Of a DNA stretch of 64,000 nucleotides, positions 1 to 55,312 are shown one piece after another. How positions within the stretch are numbered: position 1 is the first letter of the stretch; the number at the start of each line of letters is the position of its first letter. Under the pieces are notes generated by a model, which made no database searches, had not been told where the DNA came from, and worked only from the letters and a program-made list of their open reading frames with translations. The DNA lies in contig JBHGNT010000002.1 of assembly GCA_043228905.1 (NCBI GenBank), forward strand, positions 12,834,001 to 12,898,000. The letters run 5' to 3'. The position numbers and the translations under genes are program-made. Source of the stretch: Azolla caroliniana. Its lineage: Eukaryota > Plantae > Polypodiophyta.

Positions 1-1319
1 AAATCCCTCTATATGAAATAATTGTACACAATATACAACATATAATACAAAGCACATGCCCCCATTTTATAGGTGACGCATGTATGGTTAGAATGCCATT
101 TCAGCACATCCTTTCGGATAAGATCTCCTAAAGTCATAATTCATGGCTATTCATATCTAAATTCTATTACATCGTTTCCTATCTAATAATATTCCGCTAC
201 ATAATAATATGGAATCCTAATAATATTTCAGCTTCCGGCTTCACACTGCTTGCCGGTTATCCGATTCGACTTCGGCTTTCACACCAGCCAGCCTTCAGCT
301 CTTTCACATATTCAGCCTTCAACCATTTCGGCTATCAATCCCCGTGGGAGACAACTGTGTGTTACGACTTCCGCATTTATTTACACGGGTTTGCAAAGAT
401 TAGAGTTCTTGCAAAGATACTCATAAGGTGTTGTTCTCAAGTTGTAGTTGTAGTTGTTGAAGAACCTAAAACAAGAGAGATAATATGAGAAAGCTCATTT
501 TATAATCCTTATATATATATATATGGAGTCAAGCATGCTAATTATTGCATGGTTTGCCAAATTTTCACGTACATACTTAGTCTCTCCCTTAGTCTCACCA
601 TATACTGTCCAATCTCAATAGACAAAACCTAATGTCTAGGATTCAAGTATAAACGTGCAAGATTATGATAAAGGGTGGCCATTTGTCCGAAAGGTTTGAT
701 GGGAGTTTTGTTCTATGCCCCTTTTTCTCAATGTTCGCTTGAGCTAGGTGCCTATGCAAGTGTCGTGATGTCTTCATGCATTGTGTTGTGTATAATGAGT
801 ACTTAACACTAAGATATTGACACAATGTTAATATCTTGTTACTTCTAATCTCCCAAAGGCTAAGAAAAATTGGGCATGAGTGCTCATCTAAGTATAACAT
901 TGAATATATACCATTTGGACCCATAACATTTTCTCAGCAAGTCTACCCCAAGAGGTGGTGCAAAGAAAATAAGGAGGATGACAATGATGGCAACGAAGAG
1001 CAACTACTACTTTGGTTTCTAGCTCGATATTTATCTCTGTTTTTATAGGCTCTCTATCTCGCTAGGTTCTCTTTCTTCGTTTAGCCCTACTCGAGTTTCT
1101 CTAATTACTTTTTCCCTTTAAAAAGTATGTACCAAGGACTTCATTTTCTATCATATAGGGATGGATGTCTTTTTGTGGAAATAAGAAACACTAATAAGTA
1201 GTGGCAATAGAAAGCCATCACTTAGATTTCTCTCATGCTCTCATGGAGTACAAAACCCATTCATTTTACAAACAAAAACTAGTTAAATCTAGGTTTCCCC
1301 AAAAACTTTTCAATGAAAC

Positions 1320-1775
1320 TATTATAGATCATAATACTAATGTAAGCTTAAGATAAGGATAATGAAGAAATAGATAGAAAGGAGAAAGAGAAAGAAGGGT
1401 GCCGATCCACCCGACCACCCCCGAGCGAAGGGATCGAGACGGACTCGAGCCTCGATCGGCGTCCCATACCACCGCCGTGGCGTCGAGTCGTACCTGGTGC
1501 TGGCGCGCTCGCTACAAGAGTTGACCCACCACACGAGCAGAGTCTCGATGTAGTCAAAAGAAAGATCAAATGAGGGTAGCTAGGCCTCTTATTTATAGCG
1601 ATACCCAAGGCCCCCAGGCAAGTTCACACTTGACCTAATGGGTTGTCTCAATCCCGAGGATTAAAAGTAATCCTCCCCTTCTTTACACTCTCATTTAACC
1701 CTCACACTTATCCACGTGTATAGAATACTACGGTAAATTCTTACCACGGGATATTATATGGTCATGCTCGTAACA
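1320..1775 (-). repeat. 3' LTR of element A
   Basis: Direct repeat of 7885-8340, adjacent to the PPT. Confidence 0.96.
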
Positions 1776-4700
1776 TACTCCCCCTCTTTAAAACATTGCA
1801 CTCTTGCAACGGAAAGTTAGGGAAGTTAGTTCTAAGAGTATTTTCGCGTTCCCATGTGGCATCTTTTATTGATTTATCCATCCATTTTATTTTGAATTCT
1901 CGGATTTCTTTAGTACGTAATTTTTTTGTTTTAACATCGAGAATTCTTTCTGGTACATGTGGTTTAGAAGATAATTCTTCAGAAGTAACCAGAGTTTCAG
2001 TCGTAACTGTATTGTCTCCAGAACCTAGAAGTTCTTTTAGACGACTCACATGAAAGACTGGATGAATTCCGACACCATCGGGTAGAGCGAGACGATAGGC
2101 TGATGACCCAATGCGTTTGAGGACTGTAAAAGGTCCACAAAACCGTGGGGCTAACTTAGCGCACTTACCCGTAGACAATGTCTTAGAATTGTGAGGTACA
2201 CGTAAAAATACCTTCTGTCCAGGGTTGAATACACGAGGTTGCCTATGATGATCGGCATAAAAACGCGCTCTATCTTGAGCTGTTTTTATATTATCTCGTG
2301 CAATATGCAACATATCTTGCATATCCCGAAGAAAGTTTTGCGTACTTCGCAACTCATCATGATGTATATTAACATCAATCGGGGCTCGTGGCTGAAAACC
2401 ATACATCAACATAAAAGGACTATATCCCGTCGACGTATGCTTGGAGCTGTTATAAGCAAACTCCAAAATTGGGAGATAACGTTCCCATTTTGTTGGTTTT
2501 GCACCAACGTATGCTCGAAGCATGTCCTCAATAATTTGATTTACTCGTATTGTCTATCCATCGGATTGAGGATGATCCGTGGAGCTCATGCTCAACGTAG
2601 TTTCTAACTTCTTAAAGACTTGTGTCCAGAAGTCACTAGTAAACTTTGGATCTCGATCACTCACGATATCCATCGGCAACCCATAAAAACGAAACAATTC
2701 GTCAACAAATTGGTAAGCCAATTCAGGAGCTGTTACCGTGGTTTTAGTAGCAATAAATCTGGCCATTTTAGTTAGTCGATCAACGACAACCCATATGGCA
2801 TCATGACCTTTTTGGGTGCGAGGAAGGCTAACAATAAAATCCATGGATATGCTTTCCCACTTATTATTGGGAATGTACAAGGGATGTAAAAGTCCTGCGG
2901 CTTTAAGTCGCTCGGCTTTGTTAACCTGACACTGGTGACATTTAGTCACATAGCTATGTATGTCAGGACGCATCTTAGGCCAATAAAATTGAGTGGAGAT
3001 GAGAACGAGTGTACGATGTATTCCAGGGTGCCCTGCTGAGGGTGCATCATGGCATTCAAAAAGAATCCTCTTTTTGACCTCGGGTAAATCTGGAACACAA
3101 ACCTTCCCATTACGGTAGAGCAAACCGTTAGCAATGTGGAAGTATTCCTTCAAGGATGTGGTGGTGTCTGTTCCAGACTCAACTCTAGCCCAGTATTTTG
3201 CGAAATAACTGTCATCAGGATACTTTCCTCGAAGGTGATCATAAAGATCTGATGATATTTCAGTGAAGCTAAGCGTGTTAACTTCACGGATGCGACTTAG
3301 TGCATCAGCGACAATGTTCATGGAACCTTTACGATTTCGTATGGAAAAATCAAAGTCCTGGATGAGATCAGCCCATCGTGCCTTACGACCTTTCAGGTCT
3401 TGTTGGTCACAAAAATATTTCAAGGACTCGTGGTCCGTAGTTACCACAAAGTGATTTCCATAAAGATAATGGCGCCATGTTTTGAGCGCATGTATAACTG
3501 CAAATAATTCCTTTTCTTGAACGGTATACCGACATTGAGCAGAATCAAGTTTCTTACTCTCGAATGCTATTGGTTTACCATCTTGATACAAGACAGCACC
3601 TATAGCATAATCGCTTGCATCGGTTTCAACCTCAAAAGGTTTTGAAGGATCAGGTAAAAGAAGTGAAGGAGCCTTGCAAACCAGGTCCTTGAGTTCCTTA
3701 AAGGCGAGGTCTAGTGTACCATTCCACACAATAGGTTTTGTAGACTTACGTGTTTGACCTTTTAAAAGATCAGTAAACGGCGTCGTCAATTGGGAGTAAT
3801 TACGAAGAGACTTTCGCAAAAACCCCACAAAACCAAGGAATGATCGAACTTCTCGAATATTCCGAAGAGTGGGCCAAAGCTTGATTTTCTCAATGCGAGA
3901 AGGATCAATTTCAACTCCTCGTTCGGTTATGAGATGTCCTAGATAAGTAATTGATTTCTTGAAGAACTCACATTTTGAGATCTTCGCATAAAACTGTTTA
4001 TCACGCAATGTTTGTAAAACAAAGCGGACATGTCTAGCATGTTCTTGTAATGTACGGCTATAAACTAAAATATCATCCAAGAAAATAACGACAAATTTTC
4101 CAAGTTGTTCTCGGAAAATGTCATTCATTTCTTGTTGAAAAGTAGCCGGAGCATTGGTCAAACCAAAAGGCATAACCAAAAACTCGTAATGGCCATAGCG
4201 CGTACAAAATGCTGTTTTAGGAACATCGTCCTCACTTATTCGTATTTGATGGTAGCCAGTACGGAGATCAAGTTTCGTAAAATACCGAGCTCCCTGGAGA
4301 CGGTCAATTAGATCGTCAGGCCGGGGCAATGGATACGAATTCTTGATCGTCACTTTATTCAAGCGTCGGTAATTAATACACATACGCCATGTGCCCTCTT
4401 TCTTTTTAACCAAAAGAACTGGTGCACCCCATGGAGATTTACTATAACGTATATAACCCATTCGTAAATAGTCCTTGAGTTGCTTAGATACCTCATCTTC
4501 TTCGGATCGACTTAAGCGATACGGAGGTATACTTATTGGTGCAACACCAGGTACAATATCTATACGATGGTCTATATTACGTTTAGGAGGTAACCCATCA
4601 GGTAGTTCACTTGGAAAAACATCATGAAAATCATTTAAGATTTCATCAAGTTGTTGTTGTTCAAAATATGTTAATTGAATCGGGACATTATCGATATTGT

Positions 4701-5238
4701 AAACGTGAATGTTCGGATCAAATACACAATAAAATAACGTAGAACAAGACAACTCGGATATTGATGGACACGAGGAAACAATCGAGAGGGATTGTTTTTT
4801 TACACATTGAATAAAATGCGTACAATCGTTCAGTACAAAAGAAATGGAATGACGAACCCAATCAATAAATAAAGAAGAGTTTTTATTATAAAACCAGGGA
4901 TAACCCAGTATTACATCGGTGGTACAAAGATTCATTACATGGAAGTCTACTTCCTCTATATAAGTATCAATAGAAATTCCTAATGAATGAATCGCCCCGT
5001 TGATGTATTGTACTCTTCCATCAGCCAAGTGCACCGTGTAGGTGTGATCACTTACGGTGGGTTGGATTCCCCATATCTGAACCAAACGATCATTCACAAA
5101 ATTGTGTGAGCTTCCCGAATCAAATAAAAATTGTATGGGAGATCCATTGATATACCCGTTTGCACGTAGTAAATCATTGGGACCCAATACATAGTGAGGG
5201 AAAGAACATTGACAATTACTTAAATGATGTGTATAGAC
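1762..5238 (-). pseudogene. pol: pol (aspartic protease, RT, RNase H, integrase, chromodomain) with one in-frame TAG at 2554-2556
   Basis: [10 protein letters not shown] protease; FLDDIL RT; [10 protein letters not shown] RNase H; HHCC and SDRD integrase motifs; C-terminal chromodomain VPERILD...IKW...ATWE. ORFs 2554-5187 and 1762-2523 are in frame across HPQSDG*TIRVNQ. Confidence 0.95.
1776..1787 (-). promoter_or_regulatory. Polypurine tract of element A
   Basis: Minus-strand AGAGGGGGAGTA immediately before the 3' LTR. Confidence 0.9.
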
Positions 5239-6195
5239 CTAAAGGACATTAGGAATCTGACCTTTATGGTCTGCAGCTTTAGCTTTGTTGTCGTGCTCTT
5301 TCCGTTGGAGCTTTCGACATTGTTCTTTTGTATGACCCTTCTTTTTGCAGAATACACAAAAAGGATGTTGTCGCTTACAATCGCGATCCAGGAATTCGTT
5401 GGGTGTCTTGCGTTTCCCAACAAATTGCGACTGCTTAGTCCCGGGCGCTTCGTTGGGTTTGTTATGGTCCTTCTTCGAAGTGCGTTGATAGCGAAGAACT
5501 ATTTCAACGGCCTCTTCGAAGGATTTTGGATCCTTATCGTGCACTATCCAGTGATAGTCCGAATTGGGGATGCCATTGACAAAACAAGCTATCAACCAAT
5601 TGTCCCCTTCTAGACCCGATTTTTGGATTTGGGTTCTAGCATGGTGAACATAGTCCTCTAGCCAGGAAAATTTCCTGCTAGAGAGGTTCATTAAAGCTTG
5701 TGCTGCCTCGGTTCGAGAGGGAGGTTGCAGAAATTGGCCCTTAAAAACCATGACAAAATCTGTCCAGGTATCGGGCAATTTCCCCATAGTACGGAGCCCA
5801 CGCCACCAGGCGGCGGCCTTACCCCCGAGTTCTCGGCCGACATATGCAATCTTCGTACTATCTGGCGTGGGATAGAGCTCAAAATGAGACTCCCATCGTC
5901 CCAGCCATGTGCAGATTGCTTCTTCGGTTCTTTCCTTTTTGTCTCCCGTAAATGGCTTAACGACAAATGATGGTTCACCTTGTCGCTCATCAGGTCTATT
6001 AGTCTCACGTTGTAGACTAATGACACGTGCCTCAAGAGCACTCTGAGATTGCCGAAGTTCGGTCATCTGTTGAGCGGTGAAACTAAGGTATTGGGTTATT
6101 TGTGCCAAATACATCTCAGTGGACATTTGTCCAGGAGGATTCCCTTGAGTTCCTTCCGCTTGAGCGGATGACATCGGGTCGTTAATTTGAGCCAT
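5239..6195 (-). CDS. gag: Gag protein of element A
   Basis: 318-aa ORF with retrotransposon capsid-like region (LGGKAAAWW) and CCHC knuckle CVFCKKKGHTKEQC. Confidence 0.93.
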   Translation of the reverse strand: MAQINDPMSSAQAEGTQGNPPGQMSTEMYLAQITQYLSFTAQQMTELRQSQSALEARVISLQRETNRPDERQGEPSFVVKPFTGDKKERTEEAICTWLGRWESHFELYPTPDSTKIAYVGRELGGKAAAWWRGLRTMGKLPDTWTDFVMVFKGQFLQPPSRTEAAQALMNLSSRKFSWLEDYVHHARTQIQKSGLEGDNWLIACFVNGIPNSDYHWIVHDKDPKSFEEAVEIVLRYQRTSKKDHNKPNEAPGTKQSQFVGKRKTPNEFLDRDCKRQHPFCVFCKKKGHTKEQCRKLQRKEHDNKAKAADHKGQIPNVL

Positions 6196-6298
6196 TAAAG
6201 ATTATTTCTAGAAAAGAAATAGGATAAGGTCAGAGATATAGTCATAACATCTTGTCGTGATGTAAACATATCATGGGCGAGCATTAATCGATATCATT

Positions 6299-6458
6299 AT
6301 CTCACGTCAATACCCCTCTAGACGTATGAGATGAGGTTCAAGATCAGGTTACTATGGTAACACAAAGGTGTTTTAAAAACCATGGGGGTGACAAATAAAT
6401 GTCTTTCCCTGATCTCTATATCGATTTTTTCATGGTGGCTCCCCGAGGCTCAACCATG
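6299..6458 (-). ncRNA. Conserved structured RNA element in the chromovirus 5' leader (copy A)
   Basis: Homologous to 53379-53541(+), with conserved stems and compensatory base-pair changes; about 104 nt upstream of the gag ATG. Confidence 0.6.
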
Positions 6459-7367
6459 TATGTTCGCGTCATGAATAGTTTATACACGAAAAAAAATGTT
6501 AACAATAAACTATGTTTCGGTGCCCACATAAGTGGTTTCGGCTCTTTAAGTCCTATTACGAGGACCCCGAGGTGCACTTAGACCTTAAGTCTAAACATGT
6601 GTTATAGTCATATGTATCAAGGATGTTGTATGGTCTTGGACATATTTGAACTCGAGACCTCGAGAACAAATACATTAAACACTTGAGCCAACCAAGTAAG
6701 TTGCTCTTCTCGAATGCTTAATGTTTGATGTGTATAAGAGATATGCGAGGCAATTGATCATATATGTTTTTTTAAAAGAACATATATGTCAAGGGTCCTT
6801 ATTTCGCCCTCATTTACCAAAACTATGTTGGTACGCTACCTAACCTCAAGTCTCGTAATTACGATGGCATACGCCAAAGTGCAACCTAATGGTCAAGCCA
6901 AATGAGCCCTCGTTTCGTAGTAGGCTCATGTGGGCCATCACATGGTCACGTCATTACGAATGCCTCTCGTAAGAACGAGCTCATGGTGGCATCGTATCCA
7001 TGTAACGAGGGAGGGATGTTGGATACGTGCGTCATTGGAGCGACCTCACTTGAAGTGGGTCAAGCCCTACGTACTCAACATCATTTTGGCTATTCGCGTT
7101 TCTTTACGTAACGAAATCGAGGTCGTCAATGGGGTTATCAACAATAAAACAATGTTGAAAAAGGGATGGTGACAACGCCATTCTCACAAAAATGTGAGGA
7201 CGGCCACCAACATCCTTTTCCCGACAAGGACAACTTTCGATATAATCACGTAATAACGAATATACACATATGTTTACTTATCACATATATACGATCAAAT
7301 ACGTATATATGTGACCACATATGCCTATATTAAACATATCGTTATATTAAATAGCCACAAATGATGT

Positions 7368-7640
7368 GATCGAGATACGTAATCGAGGTATATACCTCTA
7401 CGCACACGAAACATCCACAAATAAGAGATCATCGTAATACGCAATGGAGGTATTGACCTCTTACGCATACGAGACCAAACGCATATCGTTTACAACAAAT
7501 CAAGGTATTAAACTCATACGCAAACGTAACATATGTTCGTGATCGTAATACGTAATTGAGGTATTAACCTCGTACGCATACGACACTCATCACATATTAT
7601 TAATATGTCAAACGAGGTATTGACCCCGTGCACATATGTA
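7368..7640. repeat. Five hairpin repeats (core GAGGT-N4-ACCTC) at about 55-62 bp spacing in the leader of element A
   Basis: GAGGTA-like cores at about 7385, 7447, 7502, 7558 and 7614, with flanking TACG/CGTA arms and dissimilar linkers. Confidence 0.7.
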
Positions 7641-7870
7641 AACGTTTTAGATAATCAATTAAAGACCACTACAACATCATTGATTTAATGAAAAAAATTA
7701 CATATAAACTAAACACATGATTAGATGGGAGAAGAGAGAATAGAAAGAAAAATTAAGGAAAGAGTTACCGAAGTTCTTTGTTGATCGTTGTCTGGATCAA
7801 GGCCAACCGCACAACGATCGATCAGCATCAATCAAAAGACAAATGAAAAACAAAGAAACATTAGTAAAAA

Positions 7871-7882
7871 AATCTGATACCA
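7871..7882 (-). promoter_or_regulatory. Primer-binding site (tRNA-iMet type) of element A
   Basis: Minus-strand TGGTATCAGA 2 nt after the 5' LTR. Confidence 0.88.
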
Positions 7883-7884
7883 AA

Positions 7885-8340
7885 TATTATAGATCATAAT
7901 ACTAATGTAAGCTTAAGATAAGGATAATGAAGAAATAGATAGAAAGGAGAAAGAGAAAGAAGGGTGCCGATCCACCCGACCACCCCCGAGCGAAGGGATC
8001 GAGACGGACTCGAGCCTCGATCGGCGTCCCATACCACCGCCGTGGCGTCGAGTCGTACCTGGTGCTGGCGCGCTCGCTACAAGAGTTGACCCACCACACG
8101 AGCAGAGTCTCGATGTAGTCAAAAGATAGATCAAATGAGGGTAGCTAGGCCTCTTATTTATAGCGATACCCAAGGCCCCCAGGCAAGTTCACACTTGACC
8201 TAATGGGTTGTCTCAATCCCGACGATTAAAAGTAATCCTCCCCTTCTTTACACTCTCATTTAACCCTCACACTTATCCACGTGTATAGAATACTACGGTA
8301 AATTCTTACCACGGGATATTATATGGTCATGCCCGTAACA
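7885..8340 (-). repeat. 5' LTR of element A
   Basis: Direct repeat of 1320-1775, next to the PBS. Confidence 0.96.

Positions 8341-9436: not shown

Positions 9437-9440
<4 letters not shown>

Positions 9441-9485
<45 letters not shown>
9441..9485. repeat. (TA)n microsatellite just upstream of the DUF789 start
   Basis: Pure AT dinucleotide run; others at about 8766-8789 and 16018-16068. Confidence 0.95.
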
Positions 9486-9486
<1 letters not shown>

Positions 9487-9500
9487 CAGCACTTCGAGAG

Positions 9501-10360
9501 ATGGAGATGAGCAGCAGCATCCACGGTGGATGCTGCGCACCATCCACTTCCTCCTCTACCTCTACCTCTACCTCTTCTTCTTCTTCTTCTTCTTCTTCTT
9601 CTTCTTCTTCTGCTCCTCCTCCTACTTGTTGCACTGCTGCTGCTGCTGCTGCTTTGATTCGTGAGCGTCTTCCACAGCATAGATGGCGCCGCAGCAGCAG
9701 CAGCAGCAACAGCAACAGAAACAACAACAGCAGGTCCCGCTCTCATCGATCTTCTTCATCTCTCTCTATGACAATGACAATGACTATGACTCCTCCTACT
9801 CTTCCTTCTCCCTCTTTTCCTATTTCTGCCCACGGATCTGTAGCCCAGTGCAATGACACCAAGCCTTCCTCTAAGCCCATCAATTGTAACTTAGATAGCT
9901 TCCTCGATGCCACTTCCCTCACCGTTCGAGCACAGCATCTTCCAAGAGTAAGGAAAAAACAAACTCACTTGCTCTTTTCTCTTTCTATTTTCTGTTCAGC
10001 TCTCCAATTCAAAATCAGTGTCTCCATTCCATTGTATTTTATTCATCTTTATCCCACAGAGCTGTCAATGGGAGACATGTCGCAAGAGATCACAACGGAA
10101 TGCAGGAAATGTGGAGCATGATGATCTCCCCTACTTCATCTTGGGCGACCTGTGGGAATCTTTTGATGAATGGAGCGCCTATGGTGTTGGAGTTCCCATC
10201 ACTCTCAAGGACCAAGACGTTGTTGTTCAGTATTATGTACCTTATCTCTCTGCGATTCAGCTCTATACACGCACCATGAAACGCCAGAACATCAACCGCA
10301 GGTAAGCCTAACAGCATTCTATGCATTTGTCTCGGTACACACACACATATCTATATATAC

Positions 10361-10394
<34 letters not shown>

Positions 10395-11859
10395 CTATAT
10401 CTATCTATCTATCTATATATATATCTCTATATCTATATCTATATATAGTGTGTGTGTGTGTGTGTGACATACAGTCCACGTTGACATGGTAACCACCATT
10501 TTTGCCTTTTCCAAAATGCATAAATTCTCTTCATAAAGCGGAGTATGTGACATATTGCCCAAGATGGAGCTTTATCGAATAAATCAGTGTATATGTATAT
10601 TCTCAACATGTAGTAGTCCTACAGTCTACATTACATCAATGCCCACATATATTTATCATCATTATATTATTGTGCCTAGGTTCCCTGCATACATATGATG
10701 TATATGTGATATGGAGGAGGCCTCCTAAATGTAATCACAATAGGTGACATTTGGATTCTACAGCATCACAGGGGGTATGGTGATAGACAGTGAAGACACG
10801 GATGAGCTGTCGGTTCCTGATTGCCGCCAGTGCCAGTGTGGGATGACCACCTCCTCGCAATGTTGCTCATCAGAATCTGACGCCTCCTGCTGTGGATGCT
10901 ATGCATTTGAGAAGATGTCACAGTCGGACCTCCGCAAGGACCCAGAAGATCAGGACAATACAACTAGTAGTTACAGCGGCCACAGCTCCCGCACGAGCGA
11001 TTGGCACGGTCACCTTCTCTTTGAGTTCTTTGAATCATCTCCTCCATATGCCAGGGTTCCCTTTTCAGATAAGGTGCTCTATAGATCTAGAAACTCTGTA
11101 GTACTCTTTGATAGCGTATTGGCTGGCTTCCTCAGTATTCGTGTGGAAGTGGATATTTTTATGATGACTCCTTTGGATGTTGTAGATTTCACAGATCTCA
11201 GCAAATTTCACAGCCTTGAAGACGTTGAGAAGTGTTGACCTTCTTCCTGCAAGTTGGATGTCTATTGCATGGTATGTAGGAAAAAGGAAGGTATTCTTTT
11301 TCTTTCCTCCTTTCTTCCTGATTTGGTTTTGACAATTCTCTCACTCATATTCTCTGGTTTAGGTACCCGATCTATAGGATCCCAATTGGTCCGACGTTGC
11401 GGGATCTTGAGGCCTGCTTTCTCAGCTTCCACAGTTTATCCACGTCATTGCAAGGTTCTCCCTCTCTCTATGCAGCCAGTGTCTGTCGTATTCAATTCTT
11501 CCTGCACCAGTATTCTTGTTCTTCTCGAACTATTGCTACTGGTGCTTCATTTCTGTGCATTGTATGGATATATAGATGGCGAGCCCTGGGGAATCGTGAA
11601 ACCAAGTAGTCGGCCAATACAATGTGCAACCTCGTTAGAACCTGGTTCACAGTGGGAGCATCCAATGATAAAGCTCGAAGCATTTGGTTTGGCGCATTAC
11701 AAACTCCGTGGATCTATCTGGACTTCTGCAGGGAATCTTGAGAGAAGGCATGCAGCATCCATGTATCGATGTGCTGAGTCATGGCTCAAACAACTTCATG
11801 TTGGGCATCCTGACTTTGAATTCTTCCGATCCCATAATCCCTCACCTCAAGCCTCATGA
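9501..11859 (+). CDS. DUF789 family plant protein, 6 coding exons: 9501-9947, 10060-10301, 10764-11073, 11186-11271, 11363-11454, 11576-11859
   Basis: GT-AG introns with consistent phases. Family motifs [101 protein letters not shown]. No stops in the spliced frame. Confidence 0.92.
10338..10465. repeat. Compound microsatellite (CA, TACA, TA, TATC, GT) in DUF789 intron 2
   Basis: Directly visible simple repeats. Confidence 0.9.
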
Positions 11860-32150: not shown

Positions 32151-35100
32151 ATGCTCGCGGAAAAAATGGTAGTACACCTCAATGTGCTTGGTCCGGGCAT
32201 GGAAGACGGGGTTCTTCACAAGTTGGACACTGTTAAAGTTGTCTCAATAGATCGTTGTCGGATCGGACACCTCCACCTGCAGATCCTTGAGTAGCCTCTT
32301 GCGCCAGATGACTTCACACATAGCGACAACCGCTCCTCAATACTCAGCCTCCGTGCTTGACAATGCCACTATCGGCTGCTTTTTACTGCTCCATGCGATC
32401 GCCACACTTCCCAATGAAAATGCGTATATCCAGATGTTGATCTGCGATCGCCAGCATTTCTGGCCCAATCGGCATCCGTGTAACCGACTAACAGCTGGGC
32501 TACTCCTACCTATAGCAACGCCATGTCCTTAGTGTTGCTAACATACCACAATATCCTTTGCGCGCACTGAAGGTGTTTGGTCATGGGCTATGACATAAAT
32601 TAACTTATCAGGCCGACCGGGTAACTAAGATCCAGTCGAGTGATCGTCAAATAAATTAGGCTTCTGAAAATCTATCGGAACTGTGTTGGGTCACACGCCT
32701 TTCCCGAATCTCAGTGAAGCTTGATGTTTCTGTCTAGAGGAGTTGAGATGGACTTACAATCTGCCATCCTGAATTTGAAGAGCATACTCAACACATAATA
32801 TCGTTGGTTGATCTGTATGCCTTTGGAGGTGCGGATCACTTTGATCCCTAGGAAGTAATGATGGTCCCCTACATCCTTCATGTTGAATGATGCTGCGACC
32901 TGGGACTTTACGCGACTGATTTCATCTAGGTCAGCGCCAACGATGACTAAATCATCGACATAAAGTAAAATACTAACAGATCCATGTCGACCTTGCTGGA
33001 AGAACAATGAAGAGCCCGATTTGGACGTCGCAAACCCCATCCGAAGCAGGCGTTGCGTGATCTTCGCGTTCCACGCACGCGGGGCTTGTTTTAGTCTGTA
33101 GAGGGACTTCTTCAGTCGGCATACCGCCGAGGTGTTCTCTCTGAACTGAAATCCGGGGGGTTGTACCATGTACACTTGTTCCTCTAGTTCTCCTTGAAGA
33201 AACGCATTCTTTACATCCATCTGATGTAAATGCCACCTCTTTACTGCTGCTACCGCAAGCTGGACAAGGACAATTGTCATTTTGGTGACTGGTGCAAAGG
33301 TCTCATCGTAGTCGATGCCGTGTTGTTGTGTGTATTTCTTTGCTACTAACCGGGCCTTGTAGTGGTTGATAGAGCCGTTGGTGTTGTACTTGACCTTGTA
33401 CACCAACCTGCATACAATCGGCTTTACACCCTTCGGGGCGTCAACCAGGTCCCTGGTTTCATTTTCCGCTAACGCGAGCATCTCTTCCTCCATTGCGGCA
33501 CACCAATTTGCGTCCTTCGCTGCTTCTGCATAACTCTCCAGCTCACACAGTTCCGCCACTCGCGTCATGTATGCATAATAATTGTGCCATGTACTCATTG
33601 TATCCAAACCACACCACGGGGTTCTTCTAGTGGGTAGATTGGCGTAATTGCTCATTAGTCGATTTTAAGGCCCTCTTCGCCGACGCGGGCTTCATTTCCG
33701 AAGGACTGTCTTCGTTCTTCTTGAAGTAGGATTCACTTTGATCTGACTCGTGTTTACCAGTGCCGTACTCCGGCATCTTTTTCATTCCCTTCTCTTTGTG
33801 CATAAACCATCTCCTCGACTTCCTATGCGGAGAATGAACGACCGAGTCTCCACTACTCGCTAGCTTTGCGTCTGAGTTGTCATGCCGACTCAGTCACTCA
33901 TTCGGCCCACTGACTCTCTTCAAGAGCTCCGATGTCTCCTTCATCCCGAGGCATTTCAGACTCACTGACCTCTTCGTCAGAGATCGGAATGGAGTCGTTA
34001 GGAGTTGGAGGCGAAGGCAAGTACCACGACGCGTACTCGGCGAACACAACATCACGACTTACATGAGATTTTTTGGTTTAGGGGTTATAACACTTATAAC
34101 CCTTCTGTTCATTCGAGTAGCCAACCAAGATACACTTCTTAGCTTTGGCATTCAACTTCTTCCGTTTTTCCTTTGGCACATGCACATCCGCAATGCTACC
34201 CAAGACCGGTAAGTGTGCCAAGTTCGGCTTCTTCTTGATGTACACTCATGTGATGACACTCCTCCATTGGCAGATGCCCGATTGTGAAGGTAGATGGCTG
34301 TTTTGACTGCTTCGGCCTAATAGAACTTTGGAAGATGCTTCTCTTCAAGCATTGCCCTTGCCACCTTTTCTATCGTCTGATCCTTCGTCTCGGCCACGCT
34401 GTTTTGTTGCGGAGTGTATCTACATGAGAATTCACGTTGAATTCCCTCCTTCTGTAGATAACTCAAGAATTGGTTGGAGAAGTACTCCTTCCCGCCATCG
34501 GACCTTAGGCACTTGATCTTTCGCCTGCTTTCCCTTTCCGCAAGGCTCTTTACCTTGAGGAAACATTGCCAAGTGTGCCAAGTGAAGTCATTGATGAAGG
34601 TTACAAAGTAACGGCTTCCTCTGATGCTCACGTTCTGTGTCGGTCCTCATATATCCGAATGGATCACATCGAGTAGATTTCAACTCCGATTATGCTCGTT
34701 GGGAAATGGAAGTCGGTGCTACTTCCCGAGCTTGCAAGCTTCGCAGACTTGGCCGTACCGGCCACTAAAATTTGGCAATCTGAAAATGATGTTCTTCATC
34801 CGCATTTTATGAAGGCATGGGAAGTTAACATGGCCGAACCGCTTGTGCCATAGGTCGATGTACGAATCGACTTTCGTTCCTTTCGCGAACAACGCAGTTA
34901 GGACTTCATTGGTATTGAGGATGAACATCCTCCCTTCTCGGTGCCCTTGCGCAATGACTTTCCTGTCTTCTTCGATGTAGCAATCTATATGCGTGAATCG
35001 AACTTGCATCCCTTGGTTGACGATCTGTCCGACTGAGACTGTGTTCTTCGTTATTGTTAGGACGTGTAGCATGTTCATGAGTTTCCCTTTCTGCTTGACG

Positions 35101-36766
35101 TGGCTGAGGGGTACTTGACCGACATGTTCGATGGTATGCGGAGTGTCATCTCCTGTTTCGACCACTCCCTGTTTTTCCGGTTTCTCCAAGTACAAGAACC
35201 ATTCCTTGTGACTTGTCATATGATTTGATGCTTCAGAGTCAACATACCACACCTCCTTCAGTTTAGAGGTGTTCACCGCCATCGAATTGGCTTTGTGCTT
35301 CATTACGAAGGCTAGGCCCGATCCATTTTTGGCTCGTTCGGAGCCCTCGGCGTAGTGCGATAGCTGTCGATTTCCTTGTTCGGTCCGCCTAGAGCCGAAT
35401 GTAGTTCTCTCCGAATCGGCATGTTTCTTCCAGCACTCGCTCTCCCTGTGGCCTTTCTTTCCATAGTACTAGCATTCCGCGACAGGCTTTCCTTGCCAGT
35501 TTTCGGTGCCGCCTCGACTCCCCCTGCTTCGGGAGGGTTCAGAACTATTGTTGGCATTACGACCATGCCTTCCATCTTGGTCATGTCGGCCACCTCCATT
35601 GTGCGTCAACTCGCGTCGTTCGCCAAGACCACGGGGGCTATCTTCTTCCGTGTACAACATCTTGTTGTCGGCGTGCGTACTTATGGAGGCACCCCCATGG
35701 TTATCCTTTTACTAGGAGCATCGACTGCAAATCGAAAAACAACAACGTATTCTCCCTCGTACAAACAGTAGTTTGGAATGCTCCAAACTTTGACGCTAAC
35801 CCTCCGAAGTTAACCTGCACCATTTTGTCCTCCTCGACGTTTACATCGACGGAGGCAAGAGAGTCACATATGTTCTTGATCATGGAGGTGTAATCAGCGA
35901 ACGACATATCTCGTTGTCGAACATTGCTCAACTCTTGCCTACGTTGGAGCTTTCTGGTTGTGGTGCTCGCGGTGAAAATCTTTTTGAGATTTCCCCAAGC
36001 ATTCTTCGGTGTCCTCGCATATCGAATGTAGCTCAAAAGCTGATCGTGCACATAGGATGCGAAGTAGTAGAGAAATCTGCTTGGCACCTATTCCTAGGTC
36101 AGGAAATCTCTGTGTGACAATTCGGGTGCTGTGTCATTACCTCCATTGACATAACTCCAGTAGCCATGCCCGGGCAGGTACTGGTGCATCTTGTACGATC
36201 AAGATGCATAGTTGTACGACCAAGAAGGTGCATCGACATATCTCTGTCGGAAGTGAGCTAGCCATTCCTTTGTCCATTCTTTCCTTCTTTTGTTCTTCAT
36301 TGTGAGCAACAGAGGATCTCAACCCTCACGTTCTGGTACCATGTCAAGGAATACGTGTGGAAGCGTAACAGACACAACTGGGTAACAACAGACAAAAGTC
36401 GAGAGACAAGGAAGGTTTAATGGAAAGCCTAATCAATATAGCGTACACAGGAGAGACAAAGAGAGCAGAACCCAAAAAACTCTATTCCAAAACAATACTC
36501 TAAAACTCTGTACATAAGACGTGCTCAGAGAGCACTTTTATACAAGTCCATACGGACTGATAGAAGTACTTACTCGTACTTCAATGCTCATCAATGAGCC
36601 CCTACACTAACTCCCAAAAATATATTCCTCTGAGGAATATCTATCCAACGGCCTCCTGATTTACACACTGCTACGACCTCTCGTTGCGCACCCGGTTTAT
36701 GCACCCAATCTATGCACTCATTTACGCACCGGTTTATGCACCCAATGTTGAGCTTGTATCTCAACA
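32151..36766 (-). mobile_element. Degenerate Ty1/copia element (same family as 46897-52633), interrupted in RNase H by the Tcn1-like element
   Basis: 5' LTR 36342-36766; PBS TGGTACCAGA; gag MDKGMASSLPTE; WYVDSEASNHM protease; RT MDVKNAFLQG and LLYVDDL. Confidence 0.92.
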
Positions 36767-46896: not shown

Positions 46897-49800
46897 TGTT
46901 GAGAGACAAGCTCAACATTAATGCGTAATACGATGCGTAAACCAGTGTGTAGATTGGGTGCGTAAATCGGTACGCATAACATGGCAGTATCAGTGTGAAA
47001 ACCGCGACGCCGTTGGGAAGATATTCCTCGTAAGGAATAATTTTGGGAGTTAGTGTAGTAGGCTCATTTATGAGCGGTCAAGTACTATCAGTACTTGTGT
47101 CAGCCCTATTGTCACGGCTTGTATAAAAGGTGCTCACTGAGCACAGTGTATGTACAGATTGAGTATTACTTTGAATTGAATCTCTGTGTGTCTTCTCTCT
47201 CTCTCACTCTGTCTTTCTCTCTCTCTCTCACTCTCTCTCTCTCTCTCCCGCGTACTGTGTATATTCTAAGCTCTCCATTAAACCTGTGTTTCTGTGTTCG
47301 GTTTTCTATTGCTTCCGCACGCTATTTTTTTTACATGGTATTAGAGCGAGGTTGAGAACCTCTATAGCCGACATAGCTTGAAAAGAAAACCAACAAAGAA
47401 GAACAGGAAAAACAAAATGGATAGAGACATGGCTAGCTCGCTTCCTACCGAGAAGCTCGATAGAAAAAACTACGCGTCTTAGTCCTACAAGATGCACCAG
47501 TACCTGCTCGGGCACAGTTATTGGAGCTATGTCGACGGAGCAAATGACCTAGCACCCGAATCGACAGACAAAGGTTTCTCAGTGTGGGAACAGTTGGTGA
47601 GCAAAGTATTGTACTACTTCATGTCTTGTGTGGGCGAACAGCTTCTGAGCTATATTCGGGATGCGAAAATGCCAAAGGATGCTTGGGGAAATCTGAAGAA
47701 GGATTTCACCACAAGCACCACAGCCAGGAAGTTTCAAGTCCGACAGGAGCTGAGCAACTTACGACAACGCGACTTGTCGGTGGCTGATTAGAGCTCGAAG
47801 ATCAAAAAGATATGCGACTCAGCCTCCATCGATGTGAACATCGAGGAAGGCAAGATGGTGCAGATCTGTCTTGGGGGACTGGCATCGAAGTTCGGAGCAA
47901 TCCGAACTGATGTGTGTACATAGGAGAATACGTCGTCGTTTTTCGACTTACAGTCGATGCTCCTTATAGAGGAGAACCACGTGGGTGCATCGACGAGCAC
48001 GCATGTCGACAACAAGATGTTGTACACGGAGGGAGATAAGCCCCGTGGTCGTGGCGGACGAGGCGAGTCGGTGCGCAATGGAGGCGGCCGACGGGATCAA
48101 GGAAGAAGGTACCGAAGTGATGCCGACAACAATTCTAGACCCTCCAAAAATAGGGGGAGTCAAGGCGATGAGAACCAGCAAGGGAAATCCGCCACGAAAT
48201 GTTGGTATTGTGGTAAGAAAGGCCACAGGGAGAGTGAGTGCTGGAAAAACGCGCCGATTCGGAGAGAACCGGGCCCGGATCAGGTTCCAAACAGACCGAC
48301 AAAGGAAATCGGCAGCAATCGCACTACGCTGAAGGATCCAGAAAAGGATCAGCCTTCGTGATGAAGAAGATCACCCCAAAGTCGGACGAGGTGTGGTACG
48401 TCAACTCCGGCGCGTCAAACCACATGACGTGCCACAAGGAGTGGTTCTCGTACCTAGAAAAACCGATGCAACCGGGAGTAGTTGCAACTGGAGACGACAC
48501 TCTACATCCGATCGTGAATGTCGGTGAAGTTCCCCTGAGCCATGTCGGGCAGAAAGGGAAACTCATGAACGTGTTACACGTCCCAACTATCACGAAGAAC
48601 CTGGTGTCAGTCGGTCAGATCGTCGACCAAGGGATGCAAATCCGGTTCATGCATCTCGGGTGCTTCATCGAAGAAGAAGGTCGAGTTATTGCGCAAGGGC
48701 ACAAAGACGGGAGGATGTTTATCCTCGACTCTAGTGACGATGGCACCGCAATGTTCATGAAAGGACTTTTTCGCGAAAGGACAAAAAGTCGAGTTGGATA
48801 TCAACTTATGGCACAAGCGGATAGGCCATGTTAACTATCAATGGCTTCAGGACCTGTAATCAAAACAGGTGGTGTTCGGATTGCCCAAATTTAGTGGCCG
48901 GAGGGCGCAAATTTGTGAAGCCTGCCAGCTAGGGAAGCATCACCGACTTCCTTTCCCTAACGAGCGTAACCGGAGCCGGAACAAGCTTGACTTGATACAT
49001 TTCAATGTATGGGGGCCGACACAGAATGTTAGTCTTGGCTGGAGTCGATATTTCGTCTCCTTCATCGACAACTATAAGCGACACTCGTGGATCTACCTCA
49101 TTGAGAAGAAGAGTGAAGTCTTCGATTGTTTCCAGGACCTCAAGAGTTTCGTCGAAAGAGAAACAGGAAGAAGGATCAAGTGCCTCTGGTCGGATGGCGG
49201 AAAAGAGTACTTCTCTGGTTAATTCAATGGGTATCTACAACAGATGGGAATTCGACGAGAATTCAGTTGCAAATATATGCCAGAGAAAAACTGCGTGGCC
49301 GAAAGGAAAAATCGGTCGATTGTGGAAGCGGTGCGGGCAATGCTGGAGGAGAAGAGCTTGCCCAAGTTCTATTGGCCCGAGGTGGTACAAACCGTGGTAT
49401 ACATCCAGAATCGGATCCGAGACAAAGTGTCGGCGCATGAGCAGTATTTCGGAAGGAACCCGAATCTACGACACTTGAGAGTTTTCGGTAGCATTGCGTA
49501 TGTGCATGTGCCGAAGGAGAGATGGAGGAAGTTGGATATGCAAGCCGAGAAGTGTATCTTGGTTGGCTATTTGGACAAGCAGAAGGGTTATAAGTGTCAT
49601 AACCCTTGCACCAAACAAGCACGCGTGAGCCGTGACGTTGTGTTTGACGAGTCCACGTCCCGGTACTTACCTCCGACTCCGGACCTCACCTCCAATCTGA
49701 GTTCTGACGATGAGGTCAGCGAGGCCAAGATGCCTCCGGATGAGCCTGAAATCGGGACCTGCGAAGAGAGTCTGATTTCGTTTCGGTTAAGCGGACCGAA

Positions 49801-52633
49801 TGGATAGTTGAGTCGGTTAGACCAGTCTGATGAAGAGCCAATGAGTAGTGGAGACTCGGCCGTGCATTCCCCGCGCAGGAAGCCGAGGAGACGGCTTACG
49901 CGCAAGGAAAAAGGGAAGAAGAAGGTATCAGATTACGACACGGATAAGAACGAGTCGGATCGACGCGAGTCCGATTCTGAGGGAAGTGATGACGGGTCTT
50001 CGAGAGCAAAGTTTGCGTCGGCCAAGAAATCCTCAACTTCGGCTAATGAGCAATTACGCCAATGTACCCACCAGAAGAACCCTGTTGTGCGGTTCGGTAA
50101 CAACGAGTACATGGCGCATCACTATGCCTACATGACTCGTGTAGCGGAAGTGCGTGAGCCAGACAGCTATACAGAAGCGGTGAAGGACGCGAATTGGCGT
50201 GCCACAATGAAGGAAGAGATGCATGCATTGGCGGAGAATGAAACCTGGGACCTGGTTGTTGCACCGACAGGTGTGAAGCCGATCGGATGTAGGTGGGTGT
50301 ACAAGGTCAAGTACAACACTGACGGCTCAGTCAACCAATACAAGGCCCGGTTAGTAGCGAAAGGCTACGCACAGAAACACGGCATCGACTACGATGAGAC
50401 GTTTGCGCCGGTCACGAAGATGAAGACCGTCCATGTTTTGCTCGGGGTAGCTGCGGAAAAGGGGTGGCACTTACATCAGATGGATGTAAAGAATGCGTTC
50501 CTACAAGGTAAGCTTGAGGAATAGGTGTACATGGTACAACCCCCCGGATTTCACTTCGGAACGAATACTTCGGCAGTGTGCCGATTGAAGAAGTCCCCTT
50601 ACAGACTAAACCAAGCCCCGCGTGCCTGGAACGCGAAGATCACGCAACGATTGCGTCGGATGGGCTTTGCGACGTCAAAATCAGACTCCTCACTGTTCAT
50701 CCGGAAAGGTTGACTCGGGCCGGTTAGCATTTTACTTTATGTTGATGACTTGGTCATCACTGGCGCCGACTTAGGTGAGATTGACCGCGTGAAGCTCCAG
50801 CTTGCGGCATCATTCGACATGAAGGATCTGGGGGACCTTCATTACTTCCTCAGGATCGAAGTGATCCACACCCCCGAAGGCATACTGATCAGCCAACAAC
50901 ATTACGTGCTGAGTATGCTCTTCAAATTCGTGATGGCCGACTTTAAGTCCTTCTCGACTCCTCTGGATAGAACCGTCAAGCTTCACCCCGATTCCGGAAA
51001 GGTATGCGACCTGATGAGGTTCCGATAGATAGTCGGAAGCCTTATATACTTGACCATCACCCGACCAGATCTCAGCTACCCGGTCAGGGTGATTAGTCAG
51101 TTCATGGCGCGACCGACCGAGGGCACCTTTAGTGTGCACAACGCGTACTCCGGTACGTCAGTGGCACTAAGGACCGGGGGCTACTATATCGGACCGATAC
51201 TTCCGCATAGTTGATTGGTTACACCGACGTTGATTGGGCTGGAAACACTGGCGATCGCCGATCCACGTCCGGTTTCACGTTCTCTCTTGGGAGTGCCGCG
51301 ATCAGGTGGAGTAGCAAGAAGAAGCCGACAGTTGCTTTGTCGAGCACCGAAACTGAGTATAGAGGAGTGGCTATGGTGACATGCGAAGCCATATGGTTGA
51401 AGCGGCTACTTAAGGATCTGCAGGTGGAGGTATCTGATCCAAGGACAATCTACTGTGACAACCTCAGCAACATCCAACTAGCGAAGAACCCCGTCTTCCA
51501 AGCCCGGACTAAGCACATTGAGGTGCACTACCATTTCTTCTATGAGCATGTCCTCTCCGGTGAAGTTGAACTTCAGTATGTTCCGACGGATCGGCAGAAT
51601 GCCGACATCTTCACCAAGCCTCTTGGTCTGGACAAGTTGCGACAATTCTCGGGTGCGCTTGGGTTGCGTCACCTCAACGTGCTAAACTTGAGGGGGAGAG
51701 ATGTCCCAGATGATGTCCACATCCCAGATGATCACGGAAGGGAGCAAGAAAGGAACGGAAAAGACCGTGACGTCAAGTCGGATGACGAATTCGATTTCGG
51801 ATTGGCTGAAGAAGCCGAGGGCGGATCCGCGGAAGAGTCCTAAAGCGGACATAAGGGGACTAACCGGAAGAAAGAGCCAAAGCCAGTCAAGCATGGGGGA
51901 GATAAAGCCATCAAGGGGGAGAATACCGAAGACAAGTTGGAGACAACCAACTCAGAGAAAAACGAAAATCGATGGAAGGAAGCCGAATCAGTTCGGATGT
52001 TTGATTCGGATACGCTGAATCAACTGAGGGCCAAGCGGAAGTGAAGGCAGCAGAAGAGGCGCCAACACCGCAACAACAAGGAAGTTGAGAAGGGGCCGTC
52101 TATGCAGACGAGCTGACCGAAAGGGTCGAGGTGCGTGAAGTCGCAGAGCGTGAGCAAGGCGTGAAGCCAAAAGGAACTGGAGCGTAGATCCGATGGAGCA
52201 AGTGGAACTTCAAGTTGAGCTTGAGGGGGAGAGTTGAGAGACAAGCTCAACATTAGTGCGTAATACGATGCGTAACCCAGTGCGTAGACTCGGTGCGTAA
52301 ATCGGTACGCATAACATGGCAATATCGGTGTGAAAACCACAAGGCCGTTGCGAAGATATTCCTCGTAAGGAATAATTTTGGGAGTTAGTGTAGTAGGCTC
52401 ATTTATGAGCGGTCAAGTACTATCATTACTTGTGTCAGCCCTATTGTCACGACTTGTATAAAAGGTGCTCATTCAGCACGGTGTGTGTACAGATTGAGTA
52501 TTACTTTGAATTGAATCTTGTGTGTCTTCTCTCTCTCTGTCTCTCCCGCGTACTGTGTATATTCTAAGCTCTCCATTAAACCTATGTTTCTGTGTTCGGT
52601 TTTCTATTGCTTCCACACGCTATTCTTTTTACA
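46897..52633 (+). mobile_element. Full-length degenerate Ty1/copia element
   Basis: LTRs 46897-47335 and 52232-52633 (length differs mainly by a CT microsatellite); TSD TGGTG 46892-46896 and 52634-52638; PBS TGGTATTAGAGC; PPT GAGGGGGAG; gag, PR, INT, RT and RH with many stops. Confidence 0.96.
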
Positions 52634-53378
52634 TGGTGGTCTTGAGGAGGTGCATGTCGACTACTCTAGGGTTTCGTACCTTAAGACATGCTTAATGTTC
52701 CATACACCTAATTGCTTATTATTCTAATTAATTTCTAATTCCACAAATTGTCATTTCACTTATATGATTATCTCGTAATTATTGTTTACTCGCCCACAAT
52801 TAACTCTCCTTTTTCCCCTTCCTTTTCGTGTATAAAGTATTTACGTGCGTTTACCTATGATGTAACGCTTCCGTGTAGACTATTTTTTTCGTATGGAGTG
52901 GGCATCATGCCGTTTTTTTGAACGATTTTTTCCAATGGATCATGTACGTTTAACTCATATTATCGAGCCTTAGAACTCGAGTAAAACCACATGAGTTCCT
53001 CTATTGATGTTTCTTCATGGATTTGAGTACCACATCTTTGCGTAACAATATGTGGCTTATGTCACAATTGTGCAAATTACAACCATCATATTAGGATGTA
53101 TATGTGCATACCTCGCACCTCCCATTTATTTGTGACATTATATTTTTAGTACGTAGCACATGGGTTTTTTTACCCTTGTTTTCGTCACTACTAGCCTCTA
53201 ATGGGTAATGCCTTATTTTATCATTTTTATTATCACATTTGCTTGTTACTCGCAAGACTAGAATATTACTTCCGAGTGAACTTGTTTTTTTCACATAATA
53301 CATTTTCTCGACCATATCAATACATGCTGGGTTGGCATTAATATAAGGCTAACTAGGAAATTAGATTGATGTTGGAAC

Positions 53379-53541
53379 CATGGTTGAGCCTCAGGGAGCC
53401 GCCATGATTACTCAAAATAGAGATCCGAGAAAGACATCTTAGCTATGTTTGCCCCCATGGTTTTTAAAACACCGTAGTGTTACCATAGTTATCGGATCTC
53501 GAATCACATCTCATATGTCTAGAGGGGTAAAGACGTGAGAT
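53379..53541 (+). ncRNA. Conserved structured RNA element in the chromovirus 5' leader (copy B)
   Basis: Homologous to 6299-6458(-); about 102 nt upstream of gag ATG 53643. Confidence 0.6.
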
Positions 53542-54223
53542 GCTTTCTTGGTAAAGTTCTTCCAATCAAAATTTCAAGCATTCATTTTGCTTGTGTATTT
53601 TCTAAACCTCCTAATTTATATTCCATACCCACAACTTGCATCATGGAACAAATTTTGAACGTTACTGGAGTGATCTCTCTGACCGAGACGTCTCAACTCC
53701 AATCCGCATGTCGCACACAAGCTGAGATCACTATTGAGCAATTGCTCACTACTACCTTGAATCAATTGGCTGAAATGAGGCAGACCAATATGGCATTGGA
53801 AAAGAAATTCCAAGAATTGACTATTGAGTCCAAGAAAGAAGGTGGGCCTTCTTTCGTAGTAATGCCATTCAAGGGACATAAGAAAGAAAGAACCGAGAAG
53901 GCCATTAGCAAGGCTTGGTCATTGGGAGTCTCACTTTGAGCTCCACCCCAAGCCCGATGTTGTAAAAATTGGTTATGTCGGTCGTGAGTGAGGTGGCCGA
54001 GCTGCTGCTTGGTGGCGTGGCCTGAGGACTGCAAAGAACTTACCCACACTTGGGAAGGTTTTGTTGATGTTTTTAAGAAATAGTTTTTGCAGCCACCTCA
54101 AACTGAACAAGCGCAACACTTGCTCACTTTGTCGAGTAAGCCATTTACCTCTCTCGAGGATTATGTGCATCATGCTCGGACCCATATCCAAATATCAGAA
54201 CTTACGGGTGAGAAATGGTTTAT

Positions 54224-54959
54224 TGTGTAGAGAATAGCGAGGAATATTGCTCGGCCACAATCGAGTCTTGAATCACTTCGATTAGAATGAAATACAGAGA
54301 TGGGAATAGGAGAGTACGTAGGATGTTTACATGGAAAACCCTAAATGGGAAAAACCACGGGAGCCCACAGACTCCAACTATCACTATATGAGAACAGTAC
54401 AATCAGAGGCTTGGAGGCAACTACCTCGAGCTCTGTATCTTTGCAAGGCGGCGGTTACAACAGAGTATCCCTCTGTATCTCCTCTTTCGCTCTCTCTCTA
54501 TACAACAGCTTTGCACACGCCAAAATATGACAAGATTTGTCCACCCCATAAAGTGATTGCCCTAAGTCATATTTATACTTATACGAACTTAGGGCTATTT
54601 ACAAATATAGCCTCAATAGGCTTACTCAACACATTTACAAGTATGTCTTCTCTTCCGGTTCTCACCGGGTCCATCCATCCGGTTTCCGGATCTCTTCTAG
54701 TTCTCACCGGGCCTATCCGATCTGGTTTCTTGATCTCTTCAGGTTCTCACTAGGCCCTCTTTATTCATAACTGGATCCCATCCGGAGGGACTGATTTCCC
54801 AACAATCTCCCCCTTCACTCCGGCATGGGATGTCTCATCAGCCCGATCCGCTTTCGACAGTGTCGAACTTGTCGGTCGTCGACACCTTGGTCAGCATATC
54901 CGACCCGTTCTCCTCCGTGTGGATCATCGTCAACACGAACTCTTGATCTTCTACTCTCT
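54224..54959 (-). mobile_element. 3' end of a copia element: 3' LTR (about 54224-54804), PPT and RNase H tail
   Basis: LTR minus-strand start TGTTGGGAAATCAGTCCCTCCGGATGGGA resembles 15837/16087; PPT AAGGGGGAGAT; RVEDQEFVLTMIHTEENGSDMLTK cut off at 54959. Confidence 0.88.
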
Positions 54960-55312
54960 GGGTGAAAGCATGCGAGTGGAAACAATTAGCTATGTCCTTG
55001 ACATAGCTAATTAGCTATGCAAAAAGCTACCATTGATAAATAGTCATTTTAGTAAAAAGCCATCATTAATAAATTAAGTATGCAAAAAACTACCATTGAA
55101 AATACTAGAGTGTTTTAATTACATATGTAAATGAGTGCCATAAATGTGCAACATAAATTGATGTGTGCACCATAAATGTGTACCATAAATTATATATCGA
55201 ATTCCTAGGTCCATTATGCATGATCCTTTGCCACATCACGTAGGCCATCTCTAGTTGAGTACTGTGGGTTAGTTGCTACCACTGTTGCTAAACCCTATCG
55301 AGTCCACCTGCC

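Follow-up and report, generated by a model that had tools for sequence, protein, structure and literature searches.

Why should two retrotransposons whose leaders have otherwise diverged keep one short segment just upstream of gag? The question arose in the window, the 64,000-nucleotide stretch of Azolla caroliniana DNA analysed here, where a first-pass annotation had paired a segment on the minus strand with one on the plus strand, each lying shortly before the gag of a different element. It proposed that the two are copies of a selected cis-acting RNA, and left its function open among an IRES, a packaging or dimerization signal and a ribozyme. Below we consider whether the segment is under selection, whether it is selected as RNA, and on which RNA of the element it might act.

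Two chromoviruses and the block they share

The elements and the shared segment are placed as follows:

1317..8340 (-): element A, a full-length Ty3/gypsy chromovirus-type LTR retrotransposon of 7,024 bp
8340-7882 and 1775-1317 (-): LTRs of element A, 99.1% identical to each other
1765..6195 (-): gag-pol of element A, with capsid, zinc knuckle, protease, RT, RNase H, integrase and chromodomain
6299..6458 (-): copy A of the main structured RNA
53379..53541 (+): the older and decayed copy B of this RNA
53643..54325 (+): gag of element B, no longer intact and interrupted by a later insertion

Element A is flanked by a 5-bp target duplication and carries a polypurine tract, as well as a primer site after the 5' LTR that we take to be of the tRNA-Met type. 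Its domains follow the Ty3/gypsy order with the chromodomain after integrase (Pfam Chromo, E 1.8e-7), and the gag sequence contains a CCHC knuckle. The tRNA-type primer site argues against membership of the Tcn1 clade, most of whose members lack such a site (PMC6317226, in part). The gag ATG lies at 6195 in A and 53643 in B. In the window's A copy gag-pol is interrupted by in-frame stops at 5239-5241 and 2554-2556, and many sibling copies retain a single long frame. The B copy in the window is older, and other insertions break it up; elsewhere in the genome there are full-length B relatives with identical LTRs, whose C-terminal domain resembles the A chromodomain.

Several features of the surroundings were recorded along the way. 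A complete copia-type element sits inside the leader of element B (46898-52637, +), with a relative at 32151-36766 (-), and a host DUF789 gene (9438-11859, +) lies just beyond the 5' LTR of element A. At L248:1055-1519 an inverted LTR immediately precedes the primer site, an arrangement absent from the 80 other copies selected by their primer site, and loci L306, L307 and L315 are tandem arrays of internally deleted units with LTRs in common. The regions 55230-56180, 57188-58440 and 62800-64000 hold an 83-bp tandem array and long 20-bp near-palindromic arrays; stop-free frames occur in the latter, near weak HTH and NIF domain matches.

The two copies of the block align at 82.9% identity over 164 columns (E 3e-38), in the positions and on the strands first reported. 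The gag ATG follows the end of the block by 103 nt in A and by 101 nt in B; the figures of 104 and 102 given earlier differ by one through the manner of counting. Two objections that had been raised against a functional RNA, equal conservation across the whole leader and a cryptic coding exon, fall away. Within the roughly 2-kb leader, the only non-coding sequences that can be aligned between A and B are the block and two short stretches of the LTR; elsewhere the internal leaders give no alignment, and the annotation had already noted poor similarity in the flanks. In gag-pol, A and B share 73% of residues, and their fourfold-degenerate sites are identical at 174 of 428 positions (41%). Since these sites are near saturation and the block stands at about 82-83%, the block must have been under selection. 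Its length varies from 157 to 165 nt in the 14 rows of our alignment, with no stop-free frame common to them on either strand, and it is therefore not a coding exon.

The same block occurs beyond these two families. DNA searches, in which the best 40 of 1,429 first-look candidates for A and the best 40 of 976 for B were scored, were complemented by a core pattern that gave 1,156 matches against 0 for its reversed control; more than a thousand copies are thus present in one genome. Through gag homologues we reached three further lineages with the block at the same place: lineage C, a metagenome contig (L131); lineage E, a decayed family of this genome with five loci at distinct places or on duplicate contigs; and lineage F, another decayed family of this genome, found at one place with a tandem duplicate and as a decayed relative. 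The duplicate, at L167:1270-1603 (-), repeats the whole structured block. All 10 pairwise comparisons of the five leaders recovered the block, at about 71-82% identity, and the C/E alignment extends more widely. A metagenome scan found at least six loci; among the matches listed, two reach the block (lineage C and one B copy), one holds only its last bases and three start inside gag. No relative was found in viral and prokaryote collections. A covariance model run across the window gave no third copy, so the other gypsy elements in the window lack the block. Thus, the block is a strongly constrained, non-coding sequence in five lineages.

The fold of the block

The model that we drew for the sense RNA contains these parts:

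6431..6458 (-): predicted hairpin P1
6340..6416 (-): three-way junction formed by P2, P3, a C-rich joiner and the P4/P5 arm
6416-6408 with 6348-6340 (-): long stem P2, which closes the junction; double-sided changes at three pairs
6403-6390 (-): hairpin P3
6388-6384 (-): C-rich joiner between P3 and P4
6383-6354 (-): P4/P5 arm; double-sided change at one P4 pair
6299..6332 (-): hairpin P6, whose loop GGGG (6316-6313) is a candidate partner of the C-rich joiner

Every stem named by the first-pass annotation is present in the sequence, and so are the two compensatory changes that it saw in the long stem, one from A-U to C-G and the other from G-C to A-U. The fold was evaluated on a MAFFT alignment of 14 rows hand-picked from the 235 loci with a block. 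In these rows 87.6% of cells pair and 16 cells carry a double-sided change, values that none of 500 shuffles reached when kinship among the rows is ignored; controls in which the fold was slid along the alignment paired at 31-52%, and a 9-row subset paired at 89.8%. The number of pairs with a double-sided change did not exceed that in shuffles (288/500 in the 14 rows, 69/500 in the 9-row subset). Clean, independent double-sided events number only about four, three in P2 and one in P4, the last running through A-U, G-U and G-C across lineages.

The model was drawn without lineages C, E and F, which nevertheless retain most of its pairs and show two further double-sided changes. Among changed pairs, C keeps 8 of 12 (p 3e-4) and F keeps 8 of 16 (p 4e-3), the baseline being 23 of 124, as measured on rare substitutions among the genomic copies. 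Variable pairs favour G-U on the sense strand over A-C (15 versus 5, p 0.04). A comparison of shared with rare substitutions within families was set aside as support, since two of the four common pair-keeping variants there were enriched by the pattern search itself. Folding energy is modest, with a z-score of -1.5 for block A (15 of 200 shuffles as good) and -2.2 for block B (6 of 200). Taken together, it is well supported that the block folds as drawn, on the sense RNA.

Individual parts of the model are of unequal strength. The GACA hairpin (P3) exists and is also the weakest helix, with 62-67% of its cells paired, partly owing to a one-column shift in the alignment. A pseudoknot between the P6 loop and the joiner, suggested earlier from five complementary bases, is plausible in a shorter form: four base pairs are paired in 93-94% of cells, but their changes are one-sided only (C-to-U), and the fifth pair fails: young B copies, like lineages C and E, have U-U or C-U there. 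RNAalifold picked the same four pairs, at the cost of P2 and P6. Pairing of the P1 loop with the linker was discarded, as it is not kept in B or F. Among unpaired columns, 46 of 80 are invariant in the four young rows.

A second structured module, also a three-way junction, lies upstream of the main block at 6520..6577 (-) in lineages A, C, E and F and is absent in B. Its covariation did not rise above shuffles (49/500), and its core resembles the P1 apex with an inserted hairpin. What looked like a second repeat matching its pattern turned out, at 6 of 8 loci, to be a short element with inverted repeats and no relation to the module. This abundant element (L253-L258) has terminal inverted repeats and a GA-rich interior, with an 8-bp target duplication in L253, and is likely a MITE of the hAT type. 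Within the LTR, a separate block at 7966-8038 (-), repeated at 1401-1473, is 75% identical between A and B over 73 nt in an otherwise diverged LTR; it includes an identical G-rich stretch of 21 nt and contains a candidate splice donor.

The comparison with Rfam that had been proposed returned no match on either block among the 76 matches in the window at E up to 5 (Rfam 15). Focused scans reached 15.4 bits at best, and SAM_alpha scored 12.7 bits (E 3.3) against a threshold of 36. The hammerhead core is marked by CUGANGA beside stem II; none of the matches to it, one in L001 and four in L131, falls in the block or the upstream module. Together with the contrast to synonymous sites, three more lineages and a sense-strand G-U bias, this supports the proposal of a selected cis-acting RNA outside the described families.

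An acceptor signature between the block and gag

What best distinguishes the possible functions, and had been overlooked in the first-pass annotation, is a splice-acceptor signature that lies after the structure and before the start codon of gag. The leader is rich in start codons: from the TATA box to gag, A has 53 ATGs and B has 46. In family A several of these fall inside the block and between it and gag. The candidate splicing signals are:

6208..6233 (-): candidate branch point (6233-6229), pyrimidine tract and candidate 3' splice site AG (6209-6208)
53632..53645 (+): acceptor position of family B and gag ATG (53643), with no AG in the window's B copy
7763..8058 (-): three candidate 5' splice sites, whose GT begins at 8058, 8034 and 7768; the sites at 8058 and 8034 fall in the LTR and can be aligned between A and B

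In A the candidate AG stands 12 nt before the gag ATG. In the representatives of all five lineages a YAG stands 8-13 nt ahead of the start codon of gag, and 9-11 of the 20 nt that precede it are U. The acceptor stretches do not align among lineages, and a YAG by itself has a background frequency of 7-14% per position; a product of such probabilities overstates the significance because the five lineages are related. The YAG is kept in 102 of 131 distinct A sequences. In B it is present in 19 of 50 distinct sequences and missing from 24, the other 7 having no gag start in range; all four long-frame B copies examined have it, and the metagenome B contig L132 does not. One B subfamily may therefore have spread without the acceptor. 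Each candidate donor is conserved in 69-76 of 80 copies. From these signals we infer that the leader is spliced to an acceptor just before gag, and since the acceptor signature recurs in all five lineages and the leader holds about 50 ATGs, the structure likely lies within a leader intron. The conserved acceptor signature, and with it the likely intronic position, is what is new here.

Public sequencing runs bear on this point through contigs that are only guessed to derive from RNA. In runs X4 and X7, which come from one study, contigs break exactly at the G of the candidate AG, and depth rises across the break from 9.1 to 12.7 and from 7.7 to 11.7. Bin depths leave no space for a second contig on the intron side, and a second, unplaced path enters the graph. 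These breaks, seen in two of four runs, are compatible with a splice junction. Runs guessed to be RNA cover the block, and in X2, X3 and X5 contigs cross the acceptor unspliced. Among the joints listed (15 of 47, plus 2 more), none has splice-site ends; the joint 6249-6608 in run X10 is one of those that we set aside as not due to splicing. The low coverage of the far leader in the RNA-guessed runs proves nothing about splicing.

Some reading frames near the start codon deserve mention. In one A subfamily (L112 and related A2 copies), upstream ATGs lie in the gag frame and might extend the protein by some 20-30 residues; in the subfamily to which the window's A copy belongs, the same short frame stops at a codon overlapping the gag ATG. 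This overlap of stop and start is not common to all lineages and was dropped as a conserved feature.

What the structure might do

We hypothesize that the block is a sense-strand RNA structure, likely within a leader intron, that marks unspliced RNA for pairing and for choice by Gag as packaging substrate, and we give this reading about an even chance. Under this model, a leader of about 2 kb with 46-53 ATGs would be spliced to the acceptor 8-13 nt before gag, yielding a short-leader mRNA that lacks the structure. If so, the block would be present only on RNA that retains the intron and can serve as genome, and this RNA would be both its sole carrier and the template for new copies. Dimerisation may begin at the apex of P1, which is self-complementary, and the junction-plus-loop domain may form the fold that Gag binds.

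The P1 apex (6448-6441, -) is an 8-mer that is self-complementary when G-U pairs are included, and it is predicted to allow a duplex between two molecules. It is kept, or is a perfect palindrome, in the representatives of A, B, C, E and F. The predicted gain from dimerisation through P1 is -14.7 kcal/mol in A, young B and C, compared with -1 to -8 for the other hairpins; this gain is not exceptional, for when the interior of the hairpin was permuted 2000 times, 170 of the results equalled it. Among the 80 copies selected by their primer site, 74 have the block, and the six without it are unique deletions or truncations, none of them an exact spliced copy. Nine deletion or truncation junctions in these copies show microhomology or inserted bases and no splice sites. 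Retention of the block is compatible with a need in cis. Since no amplified non-coding derivative was found, such a need is not separable from a role in translation; a deletion that seemed to be shared by four loci was two places counted twice.

A partner other than Gag would fit the same intron model. The structure may govern the nuclear fate of unspliced RNA, by limiting use of the acceptor or by recruiting a host export factor in the manner of RTE and MTE of mouse IAP and musD. The block stops some 70-90 nt short of the branch point and acceptor, a spacing fixed in all lineages, its unpaired columns are often invariant (46 of 80 in the young rows), and MTE is itself a complex fold with a pseudoknot and kissing loops (PMC12786077, in part). 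We consider this possible, if rather doubtful, as it leaves the P1 palindrome unexplained and as plants are described as lacking the TAP/NXF1 route, with the export of such RNAs unstudied in them (PMC12786077, in part); RTE and MTE were compared with the block by sequence through the Rfam scan only. The constant distance to the ATG, the 46-53 upstream ATGs and the missing acceptor AG in one B subfamily would instead suit a cap-independent translation element that recruits initiation factors about 100 nt before gag and so bypasses the ATG-rich leader, possibly by exposing a G to eIF4E as in the PTE, whose three-way junction likewise has, between its arms, a C-rich joiner that can meet a G-rich tract (PMC10484670, in part). 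This is unlikely, since an acceptor signature in five of five lineages offers a simpler bypass that would remove the block from the mRNA, the G tract lies in a separate 3' hairpin loop and not in a 5' bulge of the basal stem, and in family A several ATGs remain within the block and between it and gag. A bolder form, to which we assign a low probability, has the junction-plus-loop fold as a 5'-placed cap mimic, a retrotransposon analogue of the PTE that hands a flipped G to eIF4E, so that unspliced RNA is translated past 50 ATGs and is switched to packaging when P1 dimerises.

The remaining readings carry little weight. A role in reverse transcription, in primer placement or strand transfer through long-range pairing with the LTR, draws on the G-rich LTR block conserved between A and B, which has a 7-mer common to P1 and the upstream module. 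We think it very unlikely: predicted duplexes between LTR and leader are inconsistent and differ between A and B, the 7-mer is no commoner in the window than expected by chance (9 of 100 shuffles), and the block lies 1.0-1.5 kb from the primer site. The compact junction, the possible pseudoknot and the many invariant unpaired bases could also belong to a self-cleaving ribozyme of unknown class, an idea that is barely tenable given that no Rfam ribozyme matches even at E up to 5-10, that the hammerhead core motif is absent from the block and its vicinity, and that cleavage would separate the primer site from the coding region of genomic RNA. That the block has no function as RNA, and is a DNA-level site, a hidden exon or the product of recent exchange between families, is largely refuted and scarcely credible. 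Segment swaps are possible among related families and the G-U bias is only moderately significant, but the five lineages differ by 17-30% in the block, its 157-165 nt share no open frame on either strand, and its changes keep pairs.

How plant LTR retrotransposons choose between translating and packaging their RNA is a largely open question. A 2025 review states that export of plant LTR RNA has not been studied directly and names only Ogre and EVADE as intron-bearing exceptions (PMC12786077, in part). In the mostly open-access literature that we covered, we found no description of this element or of a chromovirus leader intron; the block is a real structured RNA of a plant chromovirus lineage, undescribed within that literature. 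As a compact element of 160 nt with a defined fold, a near-saturated synonymous background and more than a thousand copies in one genome, it is ready for probing and for work on dimerisation, Gag binding and splicing.

If the intron model is true, the retroviral arrangement would be inverted, with protein made from spliced RNA and unspliced RNA serving as genome. Retroviruses make Gag from unspliced RNA, and the Psi of MuLV lies 3' of the splice donor, whereas Gag-Pol here would come from spliced RNA. RTE and MTE are located away from the gag leader, and the introns of EVADE and BARE lie within coding regions. Palindromic hairpins start dimerisation in retroviral leaders, and the closest likeness is to SL-A to SL-D of MuLV, about 160-170 nt of several stem-loops shortly before gag, with a palindromic hairpin on the 5' side and a Gag with a zinc knuckle (PMC5874298, in part); restriction to unspliced RNA, probable here, would be a further likeness. 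Gammaretroviral Psi carries GACG tetraloops on two hairpins (PMC5874298, in part); the block has none, its GACG lying only within the P6 stem, and it differs further from MuLV in its three-way junction, its possible loop-junction pairing and the lack of any sequence likeness. Ty1 is also an LTR retrotransposon whose RNA has dimerisation palindromes (PAL1/PAL2) and a pseudoknot region bound by Gag (PMC6844567, in part). That pseudoknot is dispensable for packaging (PMC6844567, in part), which we counted against our packaging reading. Ty1 is, however, a yeast Ty1/copia element whose region sits at the extreme 5' end, overlapping gag and the primer site, with no leader intron (PMC6844567, in part). 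The block shares no defining sequence with the retroviral dimer-linkage region or with the Ty1 5' region.

RTE and MTE are likewise structured cis elements of LTR elements that the full-length RNA needs, and MTE makes pseudoknot and kissing-loop contacts, but both are mammalian and depend on NXF1 (PMC12786077, in part). The PTE, a 3' CITE, resembles the block in its three-way junction, where two hairpins are linked by a C-rich joiner (6388-6384 here); it differs in that its G-rich tract forms an asymmetric bulge in the 5' strand of the basal stem and that it lies in the 3' UTR of uncapped viruses (PMC10484670, in part), whereas the G tract of the block is a downstream hairpin loop in a 5' leader. 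Nearer in host are Ogre, EVADE and BARE, plant LTR elements in which splicing or separate RNA pools divide translation from replication (PMC12786077, PMC6317226 and PMC3735527, each in part). The Ogre intron lies between coding regions (PMC6317226, in part), whereas the candidate intron described here would lie wholly before gag and carry a conserved structure.
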